From positions 73,775-137,774 of the forward strand of contig JAPKHT010000001.1 of the NCBI GenBank assembly GCA_026646655.1: a stretch of DNA of 64,000 nucleotides, in the 5' to 3' direction. Numbering within the stretch: position 1 is the first letter of the stretch; each line of letters opens with the position of its first letter. The translations under genes and the position numbers were made by a program. Below are positions 5,949 to 64,000 of the stretch, piece by piece. The notes under the pieces are model-generated. The model did no database searches. It was not told where the DNA came from and worked only from the letters and a program-made list of their open reading frames with translations. The stretch is from Verrucomicrobiia bacterium. GTDB lineage: Bacteria > Verrucomicrobiota > Verrucomicrobiia > JADLBR01.

Positions 5949-6947
5949 ATGAAGCCCGCAGTCATCCTTCTCCTTGCCCTGCTGCTCGCGCCGCTGGCCG
6001 CGCATGCTCAACAAAACGCGCCCAAAACTGTCCGCGACAACCTCTGGCTCTTCGCCTGCCCGCCGGGGGGCGATGCCGACTATCTGGAAAACGCCGGCAT
6101 CCGCGGCGGTTCCCGCATGACACCGGTGGAGGGTGCCCATTGGCTGGGGATACCGAATCTCCTTTTTGTGACCCAGGACCACAACCGGCCCAAGGCCACG
6201 TGGACTGAGATCAAATGGAAAGCCAGGACGACCATGGAGCAGTGGGCGATTTCCTTCGAGTCGCTCAAGAAGGTCAGTTGGTCCGCCGTCGGCTCAAGCG
6301 GCAGCGGCGGGCTCAAGACCGTGCCCGACATCGTCTCGACCGCGAAATCGTATCCCAACCTCACGGGCGTTTATCTCGATGACTTCGTCAAGGATCGGAA
6401 AAAGCTGAGCGACGGAACCTTCGCCGGTCGGCCGGCGATGTCCGAGGTGGAATTGGAGGACATGCGCGCGCAGCTCGCCAAGGTCGGCCGACCGATGGAA
6501 GTCTGGACGACCATCTACGCCTACGACCTGGATCCGCAGCACCCCGAATATACCCATTGCGAACCGCCTCTGGTCGACTCGCTGAAGCACTTCGACGTCA
6601 TTGTGCTCTGGACCTGGAAGAGCGACGATCTCCGCGACCTGGAGAAGAACCTCGCGCGCATCGAGGCCGTGAAGCCCAGGGAGGCCAGGGTGGCACTGGG
6701 CATCTACCTCTGGGACTACACTGGCATCGACGAGAAGAAGAAAAACGACCCGACCTACCGCTTCGGCAAGCCCGTCCCGCTCGACCTGATGGAGCTCCAA
6801 TGCTCGCTCGGCCTGAAGTGGCTCAAAGAAGGCCGGGTCCGCGACCTCGTCGTCCTCGGCAACACCCACCTCGACATCGGCGCCCCGTCCGCCCCGTGGA
6901 TGCGCCAGTGGATCAAGAAACACGCGGAAGAACAAATGAACTGGTAG
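5949..6947 (+). CDS. secreted hypothetical protein, paralog B of the tandem pair
   Basis: Signal peptide MKPAVILLLALLLAPLAAHAQQ; alignable over full length with 4945..5940. Confidence 0.7.
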   Translation: MKPAVILLLALLLAPLAAHAQQNAPKTVRDNLWLFACPPGGDADYLENAGIRGGSRMTPVEGAHWLGIPNLLFVTQDHNRPKATWTEIKWKARTTMEQWAISFESLKKVSWSAVGSSGSGGLKTVPDIVSTAKSYPNLTGVYLDDFVKDRKKLSDGTFAGRPAMSEVELEDMRAQLAKVGRPMEVWTTIYAYDLDPQHPEYTHCEPPLVDSLKHFDVIVLWTWKSDDLRDLEKNLARIEAVKPREARVALGIYLWDYTGIDEKKKNDPTYRFGKPVPLDLMELQCSLGLKWLKEGRVRDLVVLGNTHLDIGAPSAPWMRQWIKKHAEEQMNW

Positions 6948-6956
6948 ACGAAAGCA

Positions 6957-8780
6957 ATGACCGTGAGCCGCCCCCTTCCACTCCTCGCCGCCCTGCTGCT
7001 CGCGCCGCTGGCCGCGCTGCCAGCCGCCGACCCGGACGTGGCCCCGCTATCGAAGACCAAGCAATGGAGTCTTGCCGGTCCGCTTGGCCGGACGCCACCG
7101 CGCGAGAATGAGTCCTGGCCACTGTCGGACCAGAAAAACCGGGACGGCTGGGTGAAGTTCGAACCGATGTGGGACGAGTTCGACGGCCCGGCGCTCGATA
7201 CCAACAAGTGGACCGTGGGCATGTCCTGGTGGCGTGGCCGGCAGCCGGCATGGTTCAAGCCGTCTAATGTCGCCGTGCGCGCCGGGCAATTGCACCTGAC
7301 CATGCGCAAGGAACCGGTGCCGCCGGGCATGGAAAAGCACGGTTACAAGGACTACACCTCCGCCGCCCTGCATACCCGCGCGCGTTCGAGTTACGGCTAT
7401 TACGAGATCAAAGCGCGGCCGATGAACTCCGCCGGCTCCAGTGCGTTCTGGTTCCAAAACGAGGATCCCACCACGCATCCGGATTGGGCGACGGAGATTG
7501 ATGTGTTCGAGCTGTGCGGCAAGTCGGAAACATTCGAGCGGAGATACAACATGAACCTGCACGTCTTCCGCACGCCGCACGAGAAGCGGCATTGGAGCGT
7601 CGGTGGTGAATGGGTCGCGCCGTGGCGCTTCGCAGACGATTTCCATGTCTTTGGCTTCGAGTGGGGTCGCGAGGAGTTGCGGTGGTTTGTGGATGGCGTC
7701 CTGGTCCGGACGGTGGCGAACACGCACTGGCACCAGCCGCTCCACTTGATTTTCGACAGCGAAACCATGCCGGATTGGTTCGGCATGCCGAACGATGCGG
7801 ACCTGCCTTCAACCTCCAGCATCGAATACATCCGTGCCTGGACGCATTCCACGGCCAATGTTCCAACGCGCTCGGCGTCGCCGAAAATCGCCGGCCCCTA
7901 CGTCCGCGTTTACATTCCCGGTGAGGATGTCTTTCCTGGACCGGATTCCCCGAACTTCAAGGCCGGGCAGTCCTACTCCGACTGGGTGCCAAACGATCAT
8001 GCGATTCTCAAGGGGCCAGAGGGCCGCTGGCACGCGTTTGGCATCACGCATCCGAAGCCGCCCGACTACCAACCGCCGCATTATGGCAAGGGTGTGCATG
8101 AAGCGGAATGGTTGCTGTTCCACGCTGTTGCGCCTGTGGGCACGTTGAAGCAACACCTGAAGACAGGCGCTTGGCGCGACCAGGCGAAAGTGCTCGCCCC
8201 CAGCGCGCGGCCTGGCGAAATCAAGGAGTGCCACGCGCCGTTTATCGTGCGCCGCGACGGTCCTTATCACATGATTTACGGTCCCAGCCCGCTGCGACTG
8301 GCGACTTCCGCCAACCTGCATGACTGGCAGCCGGTCGGCCCTTTGTTCGCACAGCAGGGTGGCGCGCGCGATCCCAACGTGCTGTTCCATGACGGTCACT
8401 ACATCCTCTGCTACGTCACGGGCAACGCGATTCTGGCGCGGCACTCGACCGACTTGCGAAATTGGAGCGCGGACGCAGTCGAGGTCTTTCGCATGCGGCG
8501 CGGAGGCGATCCCGAATCACCCTGCATCGTGGAGCACGGCGGCCATTTCTACCTGTTCTGGTGCCTGTGGGACGCCGCCGATGAGGTCAACGGCGCCTAC
8601 GACAATCGAACGTTCGTGTTTCGTTCCAGAAATCCGCTGGATTTCAAGACCGCGCCGTGCGTCGCCGAACTCAAAGCCCACGCGCCGGAGGTCTTTCGCG
8701 ATGAGGACGGCGACTGGTTCATCTCCAGCGTTGAATGGCCTCACCGCGGTGTCAGCATCGCGCCCCTAGCGTGGGAGTAA
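6957..8780 (+). CDS. GH16 family glycoside hydrolase fused to a C-terminal 5-bladed beta-propeller-like domain (GH43/GH117/GH32-like)
   Basis: Signal peptide MTVSRPLPLLAALLLAPLAALPA; GH16 catalytic motif E-I-D-V-F-E (ATEIDVFE) in a jelly-roll context (WVKFEPMWDEFDG...YYEIKARP); the C-terminal 300 aa carries propeller-like repeats (HAPFIVRRDGPYHMIYG, DPNVLFHDGHYILCYV, SPCIVEHGGHFYLFW). Confidence 0.8.
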   Translation: MTVSRPLPLLAALLLAPLAALPAADPDVAPLSKTKQWSLAGPLGRTPPRENESWPLSDQKNRDGWVKFEPMWDEFDGPALDTNKWTVGMSWWRGRQPAWFKPSNVAVRAGQLHLTMRKEPVPPGMEKHGYKDYTSAALHTRARSSYGYYEIKARPMNSAGSSAFWFQNEDPTTHPDWATEIDVFELCGKSETFERRYNMNLHVFRTPHEKRHWSVGGEWVAPWRFADDFHVFGFEWGREELRWFVDGVLVRTVANTHWHQPLHLIFDSETMPDWFGMPNDADLPSTSSIEYIRAWTHSTANVPTRSASPKIAGPYVRVYIPGEDVFPGPDSPNFKAGQSYSDWVPNDHAILKGPEGRWHAFGITHPKPPDYQPPHYGKGVHEAEWLLFHAVAPVGTLKQHLKTGAWRDQAKVLAPSARPGEIKECHAPFIVRRDGPYHMIYGPSPLRLATSANLHDWQPVGPLFAQQGGARDPNVLFHDGHYILCYVTGNAILARHSTDLRNWSADAVEVFRMRRGGDPESPCIVEHGGHFYLFWCLWDAADEVNGAYDNRTFVFRSRNPLDFKTAPCVAELKAHAPEVFRDEDGDWFISSVEWPHRGVSIAPLAWE

Positions 8781-16414: not shown

Positions 16415-18079
16415 TTACGGCGCGATGCCTTCTGGAACGAGTGCGGTGGATTCGTAGAGGATCACGCCGCCTCGGCGCACGATCTCGCGTTGAACGGATT
16501 TCACATCCACGTCGCGAACGGTGGCGCCGGCAGCCTGTGCTTTGGAGGCTGCGATGCCACAGGCTTCACCGAGGGCCATGAAGACCGGCTCCATCCGAAT
16601 CGTTTGATAACCGACGTGGCTGGCGCTGCACGCTACCGGCACCAGCAGGCCGTCCACACACTTCGGCACGAGGATGCGATACGGGAGCTGCAAGGGCTGG
16701 TGCTCGATGAAGATGTAACCTTCGCGGACGCCGGGATGCGCGGGGTCGTATTTGTGGACTCCGTGGGAATCGAATCCGAACTCGGCGACGGCGATGCCGT
16801 CGGGCTTGCGCCGCGGCAGGCCGGTGGCCCTATCGAGTGCCGCGTCCCGCTGGGTGAAGTTATACTCGCCCCAGATGCGCCGACCCTGGCGGACGTAGAT
16901 GTGATGCGGGCGGTGGCGGTTGTCGGCGAACTCGTCTTTCGGGAAGCCATATTGCCGCGCCTCCTCCCGGATGGCCTGTGGCACCTCGGGGTCATTTTGC
17001 AGCAGCCACAGGTAGCCTTCGCTGTGAGCCCAGTAGCGCTGGAAGATGCGCTCGCGTTCGGCGGCGTCGGCCTCCGGCCATTTCCAGTTTTCCTCCGCGA
17101 GATCGAACGACTCGCTGGGCACGCCGGTGTCTCCTGCCGGATGCGCGTTGTTGAGTTCATACTTCCCGTTCGGCATGGGAAAAAAGTGCATGAGCTGCCT
17201 CAGATCCGTGGCCCTGCCGGAGCGCATGTCGTCGAGCATGGCGCGGTAGTCGTCGCGGTTGAATGCCGCGGGCTTCTCCACGGGCACGGCATTGGCGAGG
17301 TCTTTGGTGACGTGGATCCGGAAGCAGAAGGCCTGGATGCCATCGTCCGCCTCGCCGGTGGAGCCGGGCAGTGGATTGACGTCCTTGAAACGAAGATAAA
17401 TCTTGCCCGCGTGAGCCTCGCCAAACGTCTCGCGGCTCTCTCTGCCGACGCGATACGGCACGCCCGCCAGCGCCGCGAGATCGCCCTCGTAAGTGGCGTC
17501 TACGAAGGTCCTCGCCCGGAACTCCACGCGCGTTCCCGGCTGGGCCAAATCTTCGGCGCTGATGCTGACGAGATTCACCGTGGGGCCGAAGTCCTGTGGC
17601 TGGGCGCCATCCCTCCGCTGGCCCCGGTCCGCCTCGCGCTCGACGCCATCCGCCCCCACGACCCGCGCGGACACCGCGCGATGCCATTCGATGAGCCGGA
17701 TCTTCTTTTCCCCCGCCAGCATGTCGCGAAACACCCTCTCGGCGACCTTCGGCTCGAACATGTGCCCGCCCTGGCAGGCCTTCACCTGCGCGGAGTTCTC
17801 GCCGTAGGTCTTCACATAGTGCTCGCGCACCCGCTTGACAAACTCGGCGAACAGCCCGCCGACGGCCGCCCTTTTCTGGATGTCGGTATTCGTCAACCCG
17901 CCCGCCACGATGCCGCCCACATGGTTCTTTTCTTCCAGAAGAATCACGCTCGCCCCCGAGCGCGCCGCCGCGACGGCGGCGGCGATACCGCCGGGGGTAG
18001 CGCCCACGACGACGACATCCGCCTGCTCGGCAGCGAACGCGGTGGAGATGGTGAGAACGAAAGTAAGGAGTGATTTCAT
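16415..18079 (-). CDS. FAD-dependent oxidoreductase (FAD_oxidored family), secreted
   Basis: Signal peptide then Rossmann dinucleotide motif DVVVVGATPGGIAAAVAAARSGASVILLEEKNHVGG; a second copy of this family lies at the window end. Confidence 0.8.
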   Translation of the reverse strand: MKSLLTFVLTISTAFAAEQADVVVVGATPGGIAAAVAAARSGASVILLEEKNHVGGIVAGGLTNTDIQKRAAVGGLFAEFVKRVREHYVKTYGENSAQVKACQGGHMFEPKVAERVFRDMLAGEKKIRLIEWHRAVSARVVGADGVEREADRGQRRDGAQPQDFGPTVNLVSISAEDLAQPGTRVEFRARTFVDATYEGDLAALAGVPYRVGRESRETFGEAHAGKIYLRFKDVNPLPGSTGEADDGIQAFCFRIHVTKDLANAVPVEKPAAFNRDDYRAMLDDMRSGRATDLRQLMHFFPMPNGKYELNNAHPAGDTGVPSESFDLAEENWKWPEADAAERERIFQRYWAHSEGYLWLLQNDPEVPQAIREEARQYGFPKDEFADNRHRPHHIYVRQGRRIWGEYNFTQRDAALDRATGLPRRKPDGIAVAEFGFDSHGVHKYDPAHPGVREGYIFIEHQPLQLPYRILVPKCVDGLLVPVACSASHVGYQTIRMEPVFMALGEACGIAASKAQAAGATVRDVDVKSVQREIVRRGGVILYESTALVPEGIAP

Positions 18080-18094: not shown

Positions 18095-19510
18095 CTAGTT
18101 GGAATTCGGATTCGGCGCGGGCATGGCGGCGCCGGCCTGGGTGCGCCAGCGCTGGAGTTGCTGGAGCAATGATGCGGCTTTGTCCGGCATCCGAGGCGAG
18201 AGATCGATCTTCTCGGCGGGGTCATCCTTGAGGTTGTAGAGCTCGAGCCGGCCGTCCTCGAAGTATTCGAGCAGCTTCCAGTCGCCGGCGCGCACGGCGC
18301 CCACGGGTGTGGTGGTGGCGTAGTAGTGTGGGTAGTGAAAATAGAGGGCCTCGCGGTGGAGCTTGGTGTTGGGTTGTTGCAGCAAGGGTTTGAGGTCGAT
18401 GCCGTCCGCGGCTTCTGTCGATTTTGCGTTGGATAGCGTGGCGTTGAGGGTGTGAAAGAGATCCATCAATACCACGGGTTCACGGCATTCAGCCGCAGGG
18501 GGAGTGACGCCGGGCCAGCGAACGATCAACGGGACGCGGATGCCGCCTTCGTAGAGCGCCCCCTTGCCGGAGCGCAGCGGCGCGTTGCACGTCACGGGCA
18601 CCGCCTGGCCTTTGTCGGTGCCGATGTAGCCGCCGTTGTCGCTGGTGAAGATCACGAGGGTGTTCTCCTCCAGTCCCCGCCTTTTCAAATGATCGAGCAC
18701 CCGCCCCACGCTGTCGTCGAGGCTCTTCACCATCGCGGCATAGACGGCGTTCTGGTGCTGCTGGCCGGGGCGGAGTTTCGCCTCGAAATGCCGGATGTCC
18801 TCGGCCTTCGCCTCGATGGGCGTGTGCGGCGCGTAGTGGGCGAGGTAGAGGAAAAAGGGTTGATCGCCGGCGCGGTCGATCACCCGGAGCGCTTCGTCGG
18901 TGAGCCGGTCGGTGAGGTATTCGCCCGGTTTGCCGAACTCCAGATGCGGCACGTAGCGGAATTCTGGCCCGAAGCGCCCGCTGCCGCTGTACGGCCAGAA
19001 GAACGTCTGCGGCGCGCCCCACTGCGTGCCGCCGACGTTCACGTCGAAACCGTGGGTTTCGGGATAATGGGCCGCGTCGCCGAGGTGCCACTTGCCGACA
19101 AGAGCCGTGAGGTAGCCCGCGTCGCGCAAACGTTGGGCGAGGGTCGTCTCGGTGTGCGGCAGGTCATGAAGCGAGTCCGCCTGGATCAGCTTGCGTTTCT
19201 TCGGGCCGCTGCGCGATCCCTCCGACCAGATCGTCATGTGCAGCCGCGCGGGGTGCTTGCCGGTGAGCAGCGCCGCGCGGCTCGGCGTGCAGACGGACAT
19301 CGCGTAGGCATCGGTGAAGCGCACCGCTTGTCTGGCGAAGAGATCCAGGTGCGGCGTCTCGTGCAAATCCGCGCCGTAGCAGCCGAGATCGCTCCAGCCC
19401 AGATCGTCGGCGAGGATGAGGACGATGTTGGGTTTGCCCGGTTCGGCGGCGTGCAACGCGGCCAGCGGCGCGATCAGGAGGGCGGTGAGGAGTGTGAGGG
19501 TGGTTTTCAT
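18095..19510 (-). CDS. S1-family sulfatase
   Basis: Signal peptide MKTTLTLLTALLIAPLAALHA; NIVLILADDLGWSDLGCYG; formylglycine motif C-T-P-S-R; start codon overlaps the stop of the upstream minus-strand gene (tcat at 19507-19510). Confidence 0.85.
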   Translation of the reverse strand: MKTTLTLLTALLIAPLAALHAAEPGKPNIVLILADDLGWSDLGCYGADLHETPHLDLFARQAVRFTDAYAMSVCTPSRAALLTGKHPARLHMTIWSEGSRSGPKKRKLIQADSLHDLPHTETTLAQRLRDAGYLTALVGKWHLGDAAHYPETHGFDVNVGGTQWGAPQTFFWPYSGSGRFGPEFRYVPHLEFGKPGEYLTDRLTDEALRVIDRAGDQPFFLYLAHYAPHTPIEAKAEDIRHFEAKLRPGQQHQNAVYAAMVKSLDDSVGRVLDHLKRRGLEENTLVIFTSDNGGYIGTDKGQAVPVTCNAPLRSGKGALYEGGIRVPLIVRWPGVTPPAAECREPVVLMDLFHTLNATLSNAKSTEAADGIDLKPLLQQPNTKLHREALYFHYPHYYATTTPVGAVRAGDWKLLEYFEDGRLELYNLKDDPAEKIDLSPRMPDKAASLLQQLQRWRTQAGAAMPAPNPNSN

Positions 19511-26247: not shown

Positions 26248-28062
26248 ATGAGAGTGACCCTGCATCATATCGCGGCGATTTGCCTTGCCGTGAGGCCCCT
26301 CGTTTCTGACGGGGCGGACAAACCCGAACCGGTGATGGACGGCACCTCGGCCGACATGTGGGGCAAGGGTGGCGTTGCGAAGGGCGATGCCCGCGGGGCG
26401 TGGCTGAAGGACTCGCGTTTCGCGATGTTCGTTCACTGGGGCCTGTATTCGGAGCTGGGGGGAAAATGGGACGACAAGACGTACTACGGGATCGCCGAGT
26501 GGATCATGAAGCGCGCGAAGATCCCCGTGGCCGAGTACGAGAAGGTGGCGGGGCGCTTCAACCCGACTGGCTTCGAAGCGCGCGAGTGGGTAAAACTCGC
26601 GAAGGACACCGGCATGCGCCACATCATGATCACCTCGAAACATCACGATGGGTTCGCGATGTTCAAGTCGGCGGTCAGCCCATTCAACATAGTCGACGCG
26701 ACGCCCTTCAGGCGGGATCCGATGAAGGAGCTGGCCGACGCGTGCCGCGAGGCGGGTCTTCGGCTGGGGTTTTACTACTCTCAGACGCAGGACTGGCACG
26801 AGCGCGATGCCGTGGGCAACGACTGGGACTTCAAGCCGGCCGAGGCGAATTTCCAAGGTTACCTGAAGGGCAAGGCCATCCCGCAGATCGAGGAACTGCT
26901 GCGCAACTACGGGCCGATCGCCGGGGTGTGGTTCGACACGCCGGGGCCGATCACGCCCGAGGAATCGAAGACGCTCGTCGATCTGGTGCACCGCCTGCAG
27001 CCGCAATGTCTCGTCAATAGCCGCATCGGCAATGACCTCGGCGATTACGACACGCTCGGGGATCAGGAGATCCCGCGGCTGCCGCGCGCCGGCCTGTGGG
27101 AGACCCCCGACACGCACAATGACACGTGGGCCTATGCCTGGTACGACAAGAATTGGAAGAGCCCGCGCGAGATCGCGGAGCGGCTCGTCCGCGTGGCGAG
27201 CCGGGGCGGCACCTACATGCTCAACGTCGGGCCCGATGGAATCGGGCGCATCCCGGGGCAGTCCGCGCGCATCCTGCGCGAGGTCGGCAGATGGGTGCTC
27301 GCGCACGAGGACGCGATCCATGGCGCCGGGCCGACGCCATTCGGCCCACTCGCCTGGGGCGAGTGCACCACCCGGGGGAACACCCTCTTCCTCCATGTCT
27401 TTCAATGGCCCGCGGACGGGCGCCTCGTCGTCCCCGGCCTGAGGACGAAGGTGAAGTCCGCCCGGCTGGATGGGGCGGGAGAACTGGCGGTCGAGTCGGG
27501 GACGGAAGCGCTGACGCTCGCGCTGCCGGCCAGTCGCCCGGATGTCCTCATCCCTGTGGTGGCCGTCGAGCTGGACGGTCCGGCGGAGGCTGGCCGCGAA
27601 CAGTTCGTGATCAACGGCTGCCGCCAGACCCTGGAGACGGGCGTCGCGAAACTTCAGGGCTGCGAGCTGAAGGCGGTGCGCTGGATGGAGAAGTTCGGCG
27701 ATTGGAAGCACGCGGAATGCGTCGTCGGCTGGCGGGGTGCCGAGAGTTCGACGGAATGGGAGTTCCGCACGGTCGCCCCCGGTTCCTTCTACCTCGACGT
27801 GGAATACACATGCCCGGCCGAGGAGGATTACTCCGAGTGGCGCGTGAGGTGCGGCGACGCCGAACTCACCTTCCCCCTGATCGATACCGGAGAGCGCCCC
27901 AAGCGCGCGGCGTTCGGTGGCGCGCTGCCGCGTTTCCGGACCTATCGCGTGGGCGTGATCGATTTCCCGAAGGCCGGTGCGCAGCGGCTGGCCCTGGGCC
28001 CGACCGGCATGGGGGGAAGGGCAGTCCGGATCGCCGCGGTGACGCTCGCGCCGGTGGAGTGA
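26248..28062 (+). CDS. GH29 alpha-L-fucosidase with C-terminal beta-sandwich and extra ~170-aa domain
   Basis: FAMFVHWGLYSELGG, KHHDGFAMF, WFDTPGP match the GH29 core; a GTG at 26230 is an alternative start. Confidence 0.85.
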   Translation: MRVTLHHIAAICLAVRPLVSDGADKPEPVMDGTSADMWGKGGVAKGDARGAWLKDSRFAMFVHWGLYSELGGKWDDKTYYGIAEWIMKRAKIPVAEYEKVAGRFNPTGFEAREWVKLAKDTGMRHIMITSKHHDGFAMFKSAVSPFNIVDATPFRRDPMKELADACREAGLRLGFYYSQTQDWHERDAVGNDWDFKPAEANFQGYLKGKAIPQIEELLRNYGPIAGVWFDTPGPITPEESKTLVDLVHRLQPQCLVNSRIGNDLGDYDTLGDQEIPRLPRAGLWETPDTHNDTWAYAWYDKNWKSPREIAERLVRVASRGGTYMLNVGPDGIGRIPGQSARILREVGRWVLAHEDAIHGAGPTPFGPLAWGECTTRGNTLFLHVFQWPADGRLVVPGLRTKVKSARLDGAGELAVESGTEALTLALPASRPDVLIPVVAVELDGPAEAGREQFVINGCRQTLETGVAKLQGCELKAVRWMEKFGDWKHAECVVGWRGAESSTEWEFRTVAPGSFYLDVEYTCPAEEDYSEWRVRCGDAELTFPLIDTGERPKRAAFGGALPRFRTYRVGVIDFPKAGAQRLALGPTGMGGRAVRIAAVTLAPVE

Positions 28063-58416: not shown

Positions 58417-58681
58417 CTCGAAAATTTCGATTGCCCGCAAAGAGCGGCCCGGGGACGGTCCGTACTCCACAGGCCTTCGGCCGAAATGCGGCGACATCCT
58501 GAGACAGCGTCAACGCGTCCTGACAGCGACCCATTTCGCGCGCAGCGCTTTGGAGTGCGGTGCGTCCTCGCACCGCTTTGCGCTGAAGCGGCTGAGAGAT
58601 TTTTTCCTCCGGCGGTCCGGCAACCGCCGGACCAGACGGGCTGCGTCGAAAATTCCGGTGGTCTAACGCGTGAGCCTTTGG
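58415..58681 (+). repeat. ~265-nt structured intergenic element, full copy B
   Basis: Starts on the TGA of the esterase gene (TGACTCGAAAATTT) and is collinear with copy A over 5' module, hairpins and 3' module; the stem loop differs (CCA vs CTC) while the stem is kept; ends ~90 nt before the GH43 start at 58775. Confidence 0.7.
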
Positions 58682-58774
58682 CTGCCAAGGCGTCACGGCG
58701 TCGGCTGCGTTTTCATCGGGCGGTTCTCCTCTGGCCCGCTTGCCAGGGAACGGGAGTTCCGATTGAATGCTGGG

Positions 58775-59710
58775 ATGATGATCCGGCTGGTGGCGGTTGC
58801 GGTGGGGCTTGCGTTCGCCCCGATGGCGGTTTCCGGCGCCGCCGCGACCTTTGAGAACCCGCTCATTTCGGGAAACCTCGCGGACCCCGCCGTGATCCGC
58901 CACGGGGGCATGTATTACCTGTATGCGACCGGCGAGGTGGACGGGGATAAAGGGACGCGCGTGTATACGTCCAAAGATCTCGTGCGATGGGAGCAGGGTC
59001 CCGTCGTGTTTCGGCCGGGTCGGCCGCACGTGTGGGCCCCTGACGTGTGGCGCGATCCGGGTTCCGGGAAGTTCTACCTGTATTACACGGTCAACCAGAC
59101 CGTGGGCGTTGCGCAGGCCGATGGGCCGACCGGGCCGTTCGTTGAGGTGAAGAAGTTTTTCGACAAGGCGATCGACGCGCACCTCTTCCGCGATGAGGAT
59201 GGAAAACTCTACCTCTATTACGTGCAGTTCCCGGGCTTTCGCATCAAGGTGCAGCCCATGGCGGGACCCACCGAACCCGCGGGCGATTCAAAGGTGGTGC
59301 TGCAACCCGAGGCCGAATGGGAAAAGCGAGCGGGCCATGTCACCGAGGGCCCGTGGATGATCAAGCGGCAGGGGCGCTATTACCTGCTCTACAGCGGATC
59401 AGGCGCCGATACGCCGGAATATGCGGTCGGGTATGCGACCGCGGAGAATCCGATGGGGCCATTCCATCGGGCGAAGCACAACCCCATCATACGGCGTTCG
59501 GAGGGGCTCTTTGGCCCCGGTCACGGGTGCGCCATCCAGGATGACGCCGGCCAGTGGTGGCATATCTATCACCAGAAGCGGACCGACCGGATCGAGTGGG
59601 ATCGCTTCATCGCGATGGATCCGCTCTGGTTCGATCCGGATGGCAACCTGCATGGTCGGGCCACCCGCGGGGTGCCGCAACCGGCGCCCGACATTTCCGG
59701 GGAGCGTTGA
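58775..59710 (+). CDS. GH43 family glycoside hydrolase, catalytic beta-propeller only
   Basis: Signal peptide MMIRLVAVAVGLAFAPMAVSGAAA; NLADPAVIRHGGMYYLYAT; WAPDVWRD; IDAHLFRDEDGKLYLYY. Confidence 0.8.
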   Translation: MMIRLVAVAVGLAFAPMAVSGAAATFENPLISGNLADPAVIRHGGMYYLYATGEVDGDKGTRVYTSKDLVRWEQGPVVFRPGRPHVWAPDVWRDPGSGKFYLYYTVNQTVGVAQADGPTGPFVEVKKFFDKAIDAHLFRDEDGKLYLYYVQFPGFRIKVQPMAGPTEPAGDSKVVLQPEAEWEKRAGHVTEGPWMIKRQGRYYLLYSGSGADTPEYAVGYATAENPMGPFHRAKHNPIIRRSEGLFGPGHGCAIQDDAGQWWHIYHQKRTDRIEWDRFIAMDPLWFDPDGNLHGRATRGVPQPAPDISGER

Positions 59711-59714
59711 CGAA

Positions 59715-60060
59715 GGGGCATCACATCCTGTGCGCGATGGCGTGGGATCCCAGGTGCTACGCCGTCATTTATGTGCCGCGCGATTACACGGATAAGAAAG
59801 ACTGGGTACCCGCGCGTTCGCCGATGGCAACGCGTTGTCCGTGGTTCTGAACAACCTCTCGGATCAAGGCAAGGATGTCTCGCTGGACATGCCCCGGGCG
59901 AAGGCCATGACGATCCGGCGGTTTGGTCGGAATGCGGACCAGACGCCATATCGCCGCGAGGGGCCACTGGCGTCAGCCCGCGCGCTATCTTTGGAGGGTC
60001 GGGAGACCGCCGTGATCAGGGCCGACTACGGCAAGGCGTTGGCCGTGCCGGTGGAGTCCG
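59715..60060 (+). pseudogene. possible decayed C-terminal beta-sandwich domain of a glycoside hydrolase (frameshifted remnant)
   Basis: Two adjacent frames translate ...AWDPRCYAVIYVPRDYTDKKDW then ...RAFADGNALSVVLNNLSDQGKDVSLDMP...VIRAD, resembling the ...avvlNnsd.a.tv.l.. C-terminal strands of GH beta-sandwich domains; no start codon. Confidence 0.25.
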
Positions 60061-60074
60061 GGTCGGATGCCGGG

Positions 60075-60100
60075 GTCAAGAATCGCCATCCGGAGGTCAA
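60075..60100 (+). promoter_or_regulatory. direct-repeat motif GGTCAAGAATCGCCATCCGGAGGTCAA, copy 3
   Basis: ~35 nt upstream of the GH29 start at 60134. Confidence 0.45.
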
Positions 60101-60133
60101 TTTTCGCCATTCTTCTTTGTGGGGGCGAGGGTC

Positions 60134-61462
60134 ATGCTCGTTCCGTCCGGCCCCGGGCACGAGCCACAGGGGGGGAATGCGCGGCTCGCCGGAGGTATGG
60201 GCGGCGACGGAGGTGAGTTGAAAACGCGAAAGTCGATTTGGGGTGCGGTGGGAAGGCGGACGCGGGCCGTCATGGGCCTTGGGTCATTATCGGGGGCGTT
60301 CGCCATGACCGTGACTGGCGCCGACGCGGTCAGCCCCCCGGGTCTGGCGTCGGAACTGGAGCGCGTTGAAAGGACCATCGGCGCCGGGCCCTATCGGCCC
60401 GAGTGGATTTCCCTCAAGGCGCACAAGGATCCCGAGTGGTTTCGTGATGCCAAGTTCGGCATTTACACCCATTGGGGACCGGTGAGCGTCGGGGCGGAGG
60501 ACGGCCCCGGCGGCGTGCAGTGGTACGGGAAGAACATGTACGAGCCCAAGAGCCCCACCTTCGAATATCACAGGCGGAAATACGGGGATCAGAAAGAGGT
60601 GGGCTACAAGGACATGATCCCGAAGTTCACGGCGGAGAAGTTTGATGCCGCGGACTGGGCGGAGCTATTTGCCAAATCCGGGGCCAAGTTTGCCGGGCCG
60701 GTGGCCGTTCACCACGACAACTTTGCCATGTGGGACTCGCGGGTCACGCGCTGGAACAGCGTTGCCATGGGGCCCCGGCGCGACATCACGGGCGAACTGG
60801 AGAAGGCCATCCGCGCGCGCGGCCTGAGGTTCATCACGACCTTTCATCATGGCTTCGCCTGGCAATACTTCGAGCCGGCGTTCAAGTTTGACGGGGCGGA
60901 TCCTCGGAATGCCGATCTCTACACGGAGCCGCACGAACCCAAGGCGCCGCCCAGCCGGAGCTTCTTGGACACGTGGCTGGCGATGGTGACCGAGGTGCTG
61001 TATCGCTATCAGCCCGACCTCATCTGGTTCGATTTCGAGCTGGAGGCCGTGATCACGCCCGAATACCAGCGCCGGATGTTCGCCGCCACATACAACTGGG
61101 CGGAGGCCCAGCGCCGGGAGATCGGGGTGGCCCACAAGCACCGCAATATCCATGAGCACACCGGCATCCTCGACTTTGAGCGCGGCCGCGAGGACCGGTT
61201 GGTGCCCTACCCGTGGCTGACGGACACATCCGTAGGCCCGTGGTTTCACCAGGAGTCTGAGAAATTCAAGACGGTGGACCAACTGGTCGACGTGCTCGTG
61301 GACATCGTGGCGAAGAATGGCTGCATGCTGCTGAACGTGGGACCGCTGGCCGACGGCACCATCCCGGAGGAGGGCCGGCGACTGCTCCTGGGCATGGGCG
61401 ACTGGTTGCGGGTCAACGGAGAAGCGATTTTTGGCACGCGGCCATGGAAGGTCTATGGGTAG
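60134..61462 (+). CDS. GH29 alpha-L-fucosidase catalytic region, terminated by an in-frame TAG at 61460-61462
   Basis: AKFGIYTHWGPVSV, AVHHDNFAMWDS, LIWFDFE match the GH29 core; possible Tat-like leader (GRRTRAVMGLGSLSGAFA) if the start is further downstream; the frame stays open after the TAG. Confidence 0.7.
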   Translation: MLVPSGPGHEPQGGNARLAGGMGGDGGELKTRKSIWGAVGRRTRAVMGLGSLSGAFAMTVTGADAVSPPGLASELERVERTIGAGPYRPEWISLKAHKDPEWFRDAKFGIYTHWGPVSVGAEDGPGGVQWYGKNMYEPKSPTFEYHRRKYGDQKEVGYKDMIPKFTAEKFDAADWAELFAKSGAKFAGPVAVHHDNFAMWDSRVTRWNSVAMGPRRDITGELEKAIRARGLRFITTFHHGFAWQYFEPAFKFDGADPRNADLYTEPHEPKAPPSRSFLDTWLAMVTEVLYRYQPDLIWFDFELEAVITPEYQRRMFAATYNWAEAQRREIGVAHKHRNIHEHTGILDFERGREDRLVPYPWLTDTSVGPWFHQESEKFKTVDQLVDVLVDIVAKNGCMLLNVGPLADGTIPEEGRRLLLGMGDWLRVNGEAIFGTRPWKVYG

Positions 61463-62209
61463 GGTCCCACGCGGCAGGCGAAGGGCGGCGGGTTCAGCGA
61501 GCGCGCCGACCGGGATTTCACTCCGGAGGATATCCGCTTCACGGCGAAGGGTGACGCGCTCTATGCGATCGCGCTCGGCTGGCCCGCGGATGGCAAGGTC
61601 TTGGTGCGATCGCTGGCATCGGTCGCGGGCAAGGTCGCGCGGGTGCGGTTGCTGGGGCACGCCGGCGATCTGGAGTGGTCGCAGGGTGAGGAGGGGTTGC
61701 TGGTGAGGATGCCGGCGCAGCGCCCGGCGGAACATGCGCTGGCGCTTGAGGTGCGAGGTGAGGGCCTCGAGCCGGCGCCATTGCCCGAACAGGACCCGGC
61801 GATCCGGCCGGACCCCGATGGCAGCATCCGGCTCGAACCTGGCGCGGCGGAATTGCACGGCTCCAAACTCCGGATCGAGCGCCGTCATGACCACGATTAC
61901 ATAGCCGCGTGGGACAGGGCGGAGGAGTGGGCCTCGTGGGCACTGGTCGTCCCCGCCAAGGCGACCTATGAGGTGAGCGTCGTATGCAGCACGCCCATCA
62001 GGGATACGGACTTCATTGTGGAGATCGGCGGCCAGCGACTCCGCGGCGTCGCAAAGAAGACCGCCGGTTGGTATGAGTACCGGACCGTTACCGTGGGCCG
62101 CATCGAGCTGGCGCCGGGCGCCGGGATCCGGTTGGCCATACGCGCCGCGGATCCCTCGGCATGGAAGGCCATCAACGTCCGCGGGATCCGGTTGGATGAT
62201 GTCAACTGA
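61463..62209 (+). pseudogene. in-frame continuation of the GH29 gene (C-terminal beta-sandwich + ~170-aa extra domain) after the amber stop
   Basis: Same frame as 60134..61462; translation ...KVYG*GPTRQ...FTPEDIRFTAKGDALYAIALGWPADGKVLVRSLAS... aligns with the C-terminal domains of the intact GH29 at 26248..28062 (…LFLHVFQWPADGRLVVPGL…). Confidence 0.6.
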
Positions 62210-62259
62210 CTCAAGAATTGACACATCGCATCCCGTGGCCGAACGCGCGAGCGCTTCGG
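62208..62259 (+). repeat. 3' hairpin module copy (GACTCAAGAATTGACACATCGCATCCCGTGGCCGAACGCGCGAGCGCTTCGG)
   Basis: Begins on the TGA at 62207-62209; hairpin GGCCGAACGC-GCGA-GCG(C)TTCGGCC with GNRA loop and extended stem; ~125 nt upstream of the 62384 start. Confidence 0.6.
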
Positions 62260-62383
62260 CCGCCAGATGCCTTACGGCTTCGGCCATATTCTCAAAGAGC
62301 GGTGGCGCCCGGCGCGCCGTGATTCCCGAGGCCGGGCGCCCTCGCGTTGGAGGGGCGGTCGGTTTCGCGACCGGGTGCGCGCC

Positions 62384-63355
62384 ATGAGAGCGGTCATCGG
62401 CGCGATCTGCGCGTTGTGCCTATCCGCCGCGGCGGGCGCGGAACCGGGGGCCAAGGTCTCATTGCCGGCGATCGCATCCCCGATCCTGTTTCGGGGCGAT
62501 GCCGCGACGGCCTATCGCGATCCGGCGGCGATCTACCACGAAGGGTGGTTTCGCCTGTTCTTCACCCTGGTAAAGATCGAACCGGACGGGCGGCCATTTT
62601 CCTACTTGGCCTGGAGCAAGAGCCGGGATCTCGTGGCGTGGGGCGCGCCCCAGGTGTTCACCCCGCGCGATCAGCGGCTCAACTATGGCAGCCCGGGCAA
62701 CATCGTGCGGCATGGAGGCGAGTGGGTCCTGTGCCTGCAGACGTACCCGAGGCCCAGCGGCGAGAAATACGGGAACCGGGATTCGCGGATCTGGACGATG
62801 CGCAGCCGGGATCTGGAGACGTGGGGAGAGCCGGAGCTGCTGCGCGTCAAGGGGGCCGATGTCCCCCGCGAGGGCATGGGGCGCATGATCGACCCCTACC
62901 TGATCGAGGACAAGGACGAGCCTGGAAAGTGGTGGTGCTTCTACAAACAGGACGGGGTGAGCATGTCGTGGTCGCGCGATCTCAGGAACTGGACCTTCCA
63001 CGGGCGGACCGCGGCGGGTGAGAATGCGTGCGTCGTCGTCGATGGCGGCGAGTACGTGCTGTTCCATTCGCCGCCGAACGGCATCGGGGTCAAGCGCTCG
63101 CGGGACCTGAGGGCGTGGCGAGATGAGGGGCTGCTGACGCTCGGGCAGTCGCATTGGCCGTGGGCGCAGGGGAGGCTGACGGGCGGTTTTGTTCTGGATC
63201 TGCGCCAGGAGCCCGCCGTCGGCAAGGCGCTGATGTTCTTTCACGGCTCGGACTTTCCCGAGGAAGACCCGCGCGGTGGATTCGACAGTTTCGCCAGCAT
63301 CGGCATCGCCTGGAGCGACGATCTGAAGGCATGGGCCTGGCCGAAGGAAGAATAG
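62384..63355 (+). CDS. GH43/GH32-superfamily beta-propeller glycoside hydrolase
   Basis: Signal peptide MRAVIGAICALCLSAAAGA; YRDPAAIYHEGWFRLFFT, RDLVAWGAPQVFTP, propeller-like repeats. Confidence 0.7.
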   Translation: MRAVIGAICALCLSAAAGAEPGAKVSLPAIASPILFRGDAATAYRDPAAIYHEGWFRLFFTLVKIEPDGRPFSYLAWSKSRDLVAWGAPQVFTPRDQRLNYGSPGNIVRHGGEWVLCLQTYPRPSGEKYGNRDSRIWTMRSRDLETWGEPELLRVKGADVPREGMGRMIDPYLIEDKDEPGKWWCFYKQDGVSMSWSRDLRNWTFHGRTAAGENACVVVDGGEYVLFHSPPNGIGVKRSRDLRAWRDEGLLTLGQSHWPWAQGRLTGGFVLDLRQEPAVGKALMFFHGSDFPEEDPRGGFDSFASIGIAWSDDLKAWAWPKEE

Positions 63356-63512
63356 CGGGCGCGGGGCACGGTAAACGGCAGGACGCGGCCGACTGCCGTG
63401 GGCGATCGTGCGCCAAACGCTGACGCGTTCGGCTGCTGAAATCTGGAGCCAGGCATGAATGGATGGAGAGACCCGGAGGCTATTGCCCCGATCACGATTT
63501 GGGGATAACCTC

Positions 63513-64000
63513 CGAATCCTGAATGGATCGCCATCTGCGCCCGTGTGTCTTGGCCGTGCCGCTTCTCGTGGTGTCGTCCCTATTTTCGAGGGGGGCGGCG
63601 CCGCGCGCAGAAACCGCTGACGTCTGCGTGTATGGCGCCACGCCCGGGGGCATCCTGGCGGCCGTCTCGGTGCGGCGCGAGGGGCGGAGCGTGGTGGTCG
63701 TGGAACCGAGCCGGTGGGTGGGTGGCATGCTTGGGGCGGGCTTGAAACCGATGCAGGATTGCCCCAATTACGCCGCCACGGGGGGACTGGCCCGCGAACT
63801 GCTCCGGACGCTGGGTAGCCCCGAATGGGACGGCGATCGCCTGAAGAAGGGAGCCCTTGGCAGGATGAGCCCCGACGAGGTGCGCCGAGATTTCGAGCGA
63901 CTGCTGGAGACCCATGGTATCCCGGTGATTTTTGAGCACCGCATCGCGGCATGCGATAAGCGCGGCCCGGCAATCGGGGCGGCCGTGTTCGATCGGGCAC
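63513..64000 (+). CDS. FAD-dependent oxidoreductase (FAD_oxidored family), 5' part, continues beyond window
   Basis: MDRHLRPCVLAVPLLVVSS signal then ADVCVYGATPGGILAAVSVRREGRSVVVVEPSRWVGGM dinucleotide-binding motif, paralogous to 16415..18079; frame open to the window end. Confidence 0.7.

Follow-up and report, generated by a model that had tools for sequence, protein, structure and literature searches.

The locus described here raises the question of how a glycosidase gene that is interrupted by a single in-frame amber codon should be interpreted when its reading frame continues intact beyond that codon. A preliminary description of the window, i.e., the whole stretch of 64,000 nucleotides that was analyzed, had offered three answers: a recent nonsense mutation generating a nascent pseudogene or a truncated enzyme, a sequencing or assembly error, and a programmed readthrough site. 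Genes encoding carbohydrate-active enzymes and sulfatases are densely clustered in the window, and the G+C content of the genome is 65.6%. At least four sulfatase genes and two GH29 genes are present, together with genes for GH43, GH16, GH99/WbsX-like, GH120-like, and rhamnosidase-like proteins, for several beta-helix proteins, and for SASA, carbohydrate, and other esterases.

Reading of the interrupted GH29 frame confirmed that it terminates (...RPWKVYG*) at the amber codon of Table 1, in the context CCA TGG AAG GTC TAT GGG TAG GGT CCC ACG. Translation from position 60134 gave 442 residues, the stop, and then 248 additional residues encoded by sense codons up to a TGA codon, as expected for the open frame that had been reported past the stop. 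Assignment to family GH29 was substantiated by a Pfam match to Alpha_L_fucos (PF01120; 329 bits versus a cutoff of 25.2) that covers positions 11 to 345 of the 345-position profile and lies wholly upstream of the stop. The Fucosidase_C domain (PF16757; 48.9 bits versus a cutoff of 25.6; residues 18 to 92 of the 3′ segment) begins 18 codons past the stop and is encoded after TAG, hence outside the terminated product. Together with a third beta domain in the same frame, this match agrees with the claim that the downstream architecture, a beta-sandwich followed by an extra domain, is preserved. Some of the homologues have a CBM_6 match (PF03422). The downstream frame was 99.8 to 100% identical to the intact genes of sister strains, indicating that it is not a chance open frame. 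As had been claimed, no frameshift or other lesion is visible in it. The protein encoded at 26248-28062, which had been proposed as an intact paralog, aligns over all three regions, but the identity is only 26%. The interrupted gene is a three-domain secreted GH29 exo-glycosidase of the alpha-L-fucosidase/alpha-L-galactosidase family.

Table 1. Coordinates in the window of the parts of the interrupted GH29 gene and of two other gene pairs that share a reading frame across a TAG codon
Feature	Coordinates	Strand	Description
GH29 5′ part	60218..61459	+	Probable signal peptide and complete (beta/alpha)8 catalytic domain (PF01120); start uncertain
Premature amber stop TAG	61460..61462	+	From GAG (Glu) by a G-to-T transversion at 61460
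Stranded GH29 3′ part	61463..62209	+	Linker, Fucosidase_C beta-sandwich, third all-beta (CBM-like) domain, original TGA 62207-62209
201-aa ORF, GTG start	61604..62209	+	Gene-caller ORF of the orphaned 3′ part
Synonymous C-to-T (GGC to GGT)	61687	+	Haplotype marker, perfectly linked to the TAG allele
Same-frame pair	5949-6947 / 6957-8780	+	TAG 6945-6947; no Pfam hit / GH16+GH43
Same-frame pair	18095-19510 / 16415-18079	-	TAG 18095-18097; sulfatase / FAD-dependent oxidoreductase

The codon present before the interruption was sought by a homologue search with the fused product as the query, which returned thousands of homologues. The best of these, P0001, is an intact protein of 645 residues that displays 95% identity with the query. 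When the window protein was aligned with 15 homologues sharing as little as 54% identity, the stop position corresponded in every one of the 15 to a glutamate residue of the motif G-E-G-P-T. Conservation of this residue was at least 90% across an alignment of 36 sequences, and 7LJJ, the closest solved structure, has it as well. At the nucleotide level, the genes for P0001 on three Logan contigs (L001 to L003) carry GAG in an ungapped alignment at 95.7% identity, and the same codon was found in two GTDB representative metagenome-assembled genomes, L004, which is the best match among the GTDB species representatives (93% nucleotide identity), and L005 (77%). Other strains of the same species also carry the intact gene. 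Six such sequences (L089 to L091 and L093 to L095), which originate from the NCBI metagenome-assembled genome GCA_020847615.1 (MCC6352685.1) and from runs SRR32799347, SRR32799348, SRR13860396, SRR28201750, and SRR31850043, have GAG in an intact gene of 634 codons at 99.6 to 99.9% identity. Their products differ from that of the window by one to three residues in addition to the glutamate at the stop position. The presence of GAG both in outgroups and in conspecific strains indicates that TAG is the derived state, which on this comparison is accounted for by a single G-to-T transversion. Thus, the comparison with orthologues that the preliminary description had called for revealed glutamate in every relative and termination at this codon in none; the ancestral codon is GAG and not CAG or TGG, the examples that had been anticipated.

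These comparisons support a recent nonsense mutation, provided that the T at position 61460 is genuine. The alternative is that the organism truly has GAG and that TAG arose through an error of sequencing or assembly, as might be feared since the window probably derives from a metagenome-assembled genome and the site has a G-rich context (GGGTAGGG versus GGGGAGGG). However, the TAG allele was recovered in the Logan assemblies of six runs, SRR22272413, SRR22272410, SRR31850039, SRR31850040, SRR26196971, and SRR34420820, which were assembled separately and belong to four SRA accession series, the independence of the sampling sites being deduced from the accession series only. The contigs of these runs (L084 to L088 and L092) were 99.7 to 100% identical to the window over 1.8 to 5.4 kb and all had T at 61460, making seven sequences with the window itself. 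In addition, 61460T is perfectly linked to 61687T and 62467G, located 227 and 1007 nt away, a combination present in 7 of 7 TAG-bearing sequences and in none of the 6 intact sequences. Position 61687 is a C in the six intact sequences and in the outgroups, which have the other state at both 61460 and 61687. Such linkage is not expected from a site-specific error, and other runs assemble a G at 61460 in an unchanged sequence context. The phasing of the TAG allele with distant polymorphisms, its recurrence in four accession series, and the assembly of G in an identical context by other runs lead us to conclude that, as judged from these contigs, the TAG allele genuinely exists, is derived, and arose only once. 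An artefact is accordingly a most improbable explanation, and the suggestion of an error is effectively refuted.

The intact sequence from SRR31850043 comes from the same accession series as the TAG-bearing runs SRR31850039 and SRR31850040, which suggests, from the accession numbers, that both alleles may segregate in one study system. A scan of JGI metagenomes with a 43-nt pattern for either allele gave no match, and no papers were retrieved by searching the literature for the accessions of the runs and assemblies. Among the same-species contigs L084 to L095, the pattern of single-nucleotide polymorphisms over window positions 58554-64000 is mosaic. Contig L088 carries TAG together with outgroup-like states at 60724, 60847, 60865, 60959, and 61246, and the intact contig L095 has 59497T, 60160C, and 63585T in common with the TAG haplotype. 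This mosaicism points to recombination among strains that co-occur or, alternatively, to chimeric contigs in the metagenome assemblies.

A genuine amber codon could still be decoded, whether by an amber-suppressor tRNA, by pyrrolysine insertion, or in response to a programmed readthrough signal, in which case the full-length enzyme would still be made. In programmed readthrough and amber recoding, too, the coding frame continues intact past an in-frame TAG, and the perfectly preserved downstream frame fits this interpretation, although it equally fits a very young lesion. Several results argue against readthrough. The stop is missing from every orthologue and sister strain, so that there is no conserved recoding site, and the ancestral invariant glutamate is not the residue inserted by a known suppressor or by the pyrrolysine system. 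TAG behaves as an ordinary terminator in the window, where nine other coding-like frames end with this codon; one of the nine is the gene next to the GH29 gene, at 62384-63355, which encodes the annotated 323-aa protein MCC6352684.1. ARAGORN, used in the search for a suppressor tRNA with anticodon CUA, detected no tRNA gene at all within the 64-kb window, a result that is uninformative on the rest of the genome. No stimulatory RNA structure was found at 61440-61580, since this region folds no better than its shuffled versions (minimum free energy of -57.7 kcal/mol versus a shuffle mean of -58.7; z = 0.25). Readthrough thus appears highly unlikely, and the corresponding option of the preliminary description received no support from any of these analyses.

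Genome-wide recoding of TAG was also considered. All six frames of the window were scanned for stops with 120 or more open codons of coding-like GC3 on either side. This possibility was rejected because the other clearest candidates, TAG 6945 and TAG 18097, separate unrelated neighboring genes. In both of these same-frame pairs (Table 1), a single TAG and 9 to 15 nt lie between the genes, giving the appearance of split genes, and the proteins are unrelated.

The stranded part of the gene shows no damage. Downstream of the stop, TAG-bearing and intact strains are separated by no indel, no amino acid change, and one synonymous change, the C-to-T substitution at 61687, which is the only fixed difference inside the 3′ part. 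The TAG-bearing sequences are identical to one another in this region. Comparison with L001, over 1938 nt without indels, gave a dN/dS of 0.29 for the part before the stop and of 0.18 for the part after it, indicating that purifying selection acted on the 3′ part during essentially all of the divergence that can be measured. No secondary lesion or relaxed constraint was seen downstream of the stop, in a lineage that is too young for discrimination by these signs. Since one synonymous change separates the TAG lineage from intact strains in this region, the nonsense mutation is, on this measure, very young and too recent for visible decay.

The expected consequence of the mutation depends on the position of the stop in the fold. 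In P0001, the 95%-identical orthologue, the glutamate corresponding to the stop is Glu397. An AlphaFold model of this protein (mean pLDDT of 88 and pTM of 0.81) places Glu397 at the end of a strand (residues 390 to 397) that follows the last helix of the barrel (residues 366 to 385). Beyond this residue, the model contains a low-confidence linker (residues 403 to 409) and an all-beta region that extends from residue 421 to residue 643, at the end of the protein. The preliminary description had placed the stop in an interdomain loop; it does fall at a domain boundary, but the lost glutamate terminates a strand and is not strictly located in a loop. Translation ending at this boundary would release the catalytic barrel without the two C-terminal beta domains. 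The best 120 of the thousands of homologues were all at least 486 residues long, and none consisted of the catalytic domain only. Nearly all of these 120 proteins contained PF16757, and the few without a match were still full length. The lack of catalytic-only proteins in this set suggests that the beta-sandwich is obligatory in the subfamily, as it appears from the homologues. The barrel-only fragment would then be inactive or strongly impaired, making the gene a nascent pseudogene, and full-length protein would be produced at most in trace amounts, by ordinary near-cognate misreading. Loss of function, or production of a crippled catalytic-only fragment, is therefore the most likely outcome predicted from the sequence and the structural model. 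Tolerance of the loss could be explained by the many other glycosidases encoded in the locus.

It might be argued, instead, that the allele encodes a functional catalytic-only GH29 enzyme, possibly accompanied by a separately translated C-terminal fragment. On this view, the allele would be a variant that has lost domains and not a pseudogene. One or two beta-sandwich domains are usual at the C terminus of GH29 enzymes, AlfC being the exception with none (reviewed in PMC10154630). AlfC, from Lactobacillus casei, establishes that a GH29 barrel can in principle work without a beta-sandwich (PMC10154630). The stop of the window gene occurs directly after a complete Pfam catalytic domain, at the predicted domain boundary, and both the WFD motif of the nucleophile region and the sugar-binding aspartate of PWLTDTSVG are encoded upstream of it. 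The allele also persists in runs of four accession series, indicating that it is at least tolerated and could be favored. AlfC is not among the PDB matches at E ≤ 1e-10. Against this interpretation, the C-terminal region is retained by all of the best 120 homologues. Furthermore, the lost glutamate and the GPT...GGFSE motif that follows it are invariant or nearly so. The only in-frame restart codons, TTG 61601 and GTG 61604, are located 47 codons past the stop, so that a protein reinitiated there would have neither the linker nor the first strands of the beta-sandwich. The 201-aa ORF starting at this GTG, which lacks these elements, is on record as an exact product (P0133) in 5 Logan contigs and at NCBI, and it is probably not a functional unit. 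A literature search for truncation experiments on the C-terminal domains of GH29 enzymes yielded nothing decisive. We consider a functional catalytic-only enzyme to be improbable. Less probable still is the proposal that TAG is a selected domain-loss variant, which would liberate the catalytic barrel either by itself or alongside a carbohydrate-binding fragment that is initiated separately. Were it correct, the substrate range or the localization of the enzyme would be changed, and the persistence of the allele beside the intact allele across several sampled communities would be explained.

Together, these comparisons make it very probable that the TAG codon is a real, heritable, and very recent GAG-to-TAG nonsense mutation carried by one clonal lineage of an uncultured Verrucomicrobiae species, and that the GH29 gene is a nascent pseudogene in that lineage. 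This is an ordinary strain-specific nonsense polymorphism, well documented across public assemblies. As in other nonsense polymorphisms segregating in bacterial species, a single derived stop is present in a gene under purifying selection, the conspecific strains are intact, and secondary lesions have not yet accumulated; nothing is unusual here except that the polymorphism can be traced through several public metagenome runs. It provides a clean case of a polymorphism with probable loss of function that distinguishes strains at a locus for polysaccharide degradation, and the TAG allele could be used as a strain marker. In the annotation of the TAG strain, a single disrupted GH29 gene should take the place of the two ORFs at 60305-61462 and 61604-62209, and the repertoire of carbohydrate-active enzymes should be counted with this gene disrupted. 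The TAG at 61460 has no bearing on genetic-code variation and is of little importance outside annotation.

The closest solved structures are those of the Bacteroides plebeius enzyme BpGH29 (7LJJ, 7LK7, and 7LNP) and of 7SNK, a relative of BpGH29 designated 'alpha-L-fucosidase', with E values of about 1e-98. The match to 7LJJ (E = 2e-98) covers residues 39 to 488 of the intact orthologue. The invariant aspartate of the motif IWFDFE aligns with that of 'liwfDw' in 7LJJ, and the next residue in 7LJJ, Trp265, corresponds to Met225 of the Thermotoga enzyme, in which Asp224 is the nucleophile. BpGH29 is an exo-alpha-L-galactosidase that shares with the window gene the catalytic barrel and beta-sandwich, the glutamate lost through the mutation, the WFD motif, and the aspartate of WxTDTSVG. 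In contrast, the third domain of the window gene is not aligned to the structure, the window copy is cut by the stop, and the host belongs to a different phylum. Asp327 of BpGH29 fixes O6 of L-galactose (PMC9774334) and aligns with the invariant aspartate of PWLTDTSVG encoded at 61223-61225 in the window gene. Trp335 of BpGH29 is also conserved in the window gene and its homologues. The substrate may therefore be alpha-L-galactosides, e.g., from red-algal-type galactans, although the match is too remote for assigning specificity for L-fucosides versus L-galactosides. Alignment of the O6-binding aspartate implies that the label 'fucosidase' should read GH29 alpha-L-fucosidase or alpha-L-galactosidase.

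The start of the gene is less well defined than its interruption. The ATG at 60134, proposed in the preliminary description, is unlikely to be used, since the G-run that ends at 60169 is one residue shorter in the sister-strain contigs L089 to L091, so that the frame is shifted. Candidate start codons are TTG 60218, ATG 60272, and ATG 60305. TTG 60218 is plausible because the initial methionine of a relative, P0126, is located at this position. Gene callers select ATG 60272 or ATG 60305. An exact-sequence look-up found N-terminal pieces of 385 residues (from 60305) and 442 residues (from 60134) on record as called genes, and the exact product from ATG 60272 was not on record in the same look-up. 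The homopolymer at 60163-60169 contains seven G residues in the window, in the TAG strains, and in the intact contigs L093 to L095 and six in the intact contigs L089 to L091. It is located upstream of the likely GH29 start and alters which upstream ATG is in frame; gene callers therefore give differing product lengths (442 versus 385 residues).

No promoter or terminator signals were found between positions 59600 and 62500. The gap of about 500 nt between the GH43 gene and the GH29 gene contains an ORF of 128 codons on the plus strand (59835-60221), whose sole Pfam match is to PF18206, 'Porphyranase beta-sandwich domain 1' (30.3 bits versus a cutoff of 27; residues 3 to 71). The TGA codon of this ORF shares nucleotides with TTG 60218, the candidate start of the GH29 gene (TTGA, 60218-60221), and the tail of the ORF is frame-shifted in sister strains through the indel in the G-run. 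The ORF is probably a relic of a lost glycosidase gene.

On the other side of the GH29 gene, relatives at 93 to 95% identity contain extra sequence between this gene and the GH43-like gene, at a location corresponding to window positions 62210-62352. The extra sequence is about 1.4 kb long in L004 (11939-13322), and in L001 to L003 it encodes a GH98-like protein of 612 residues (PF08306/PF08307; 11956-13794 in L001). Loss of the GH98-like gene was considered as a sign of decay of the locus in the TAG strain and was rejected as such, because strains with the intact allele also lack that gene.
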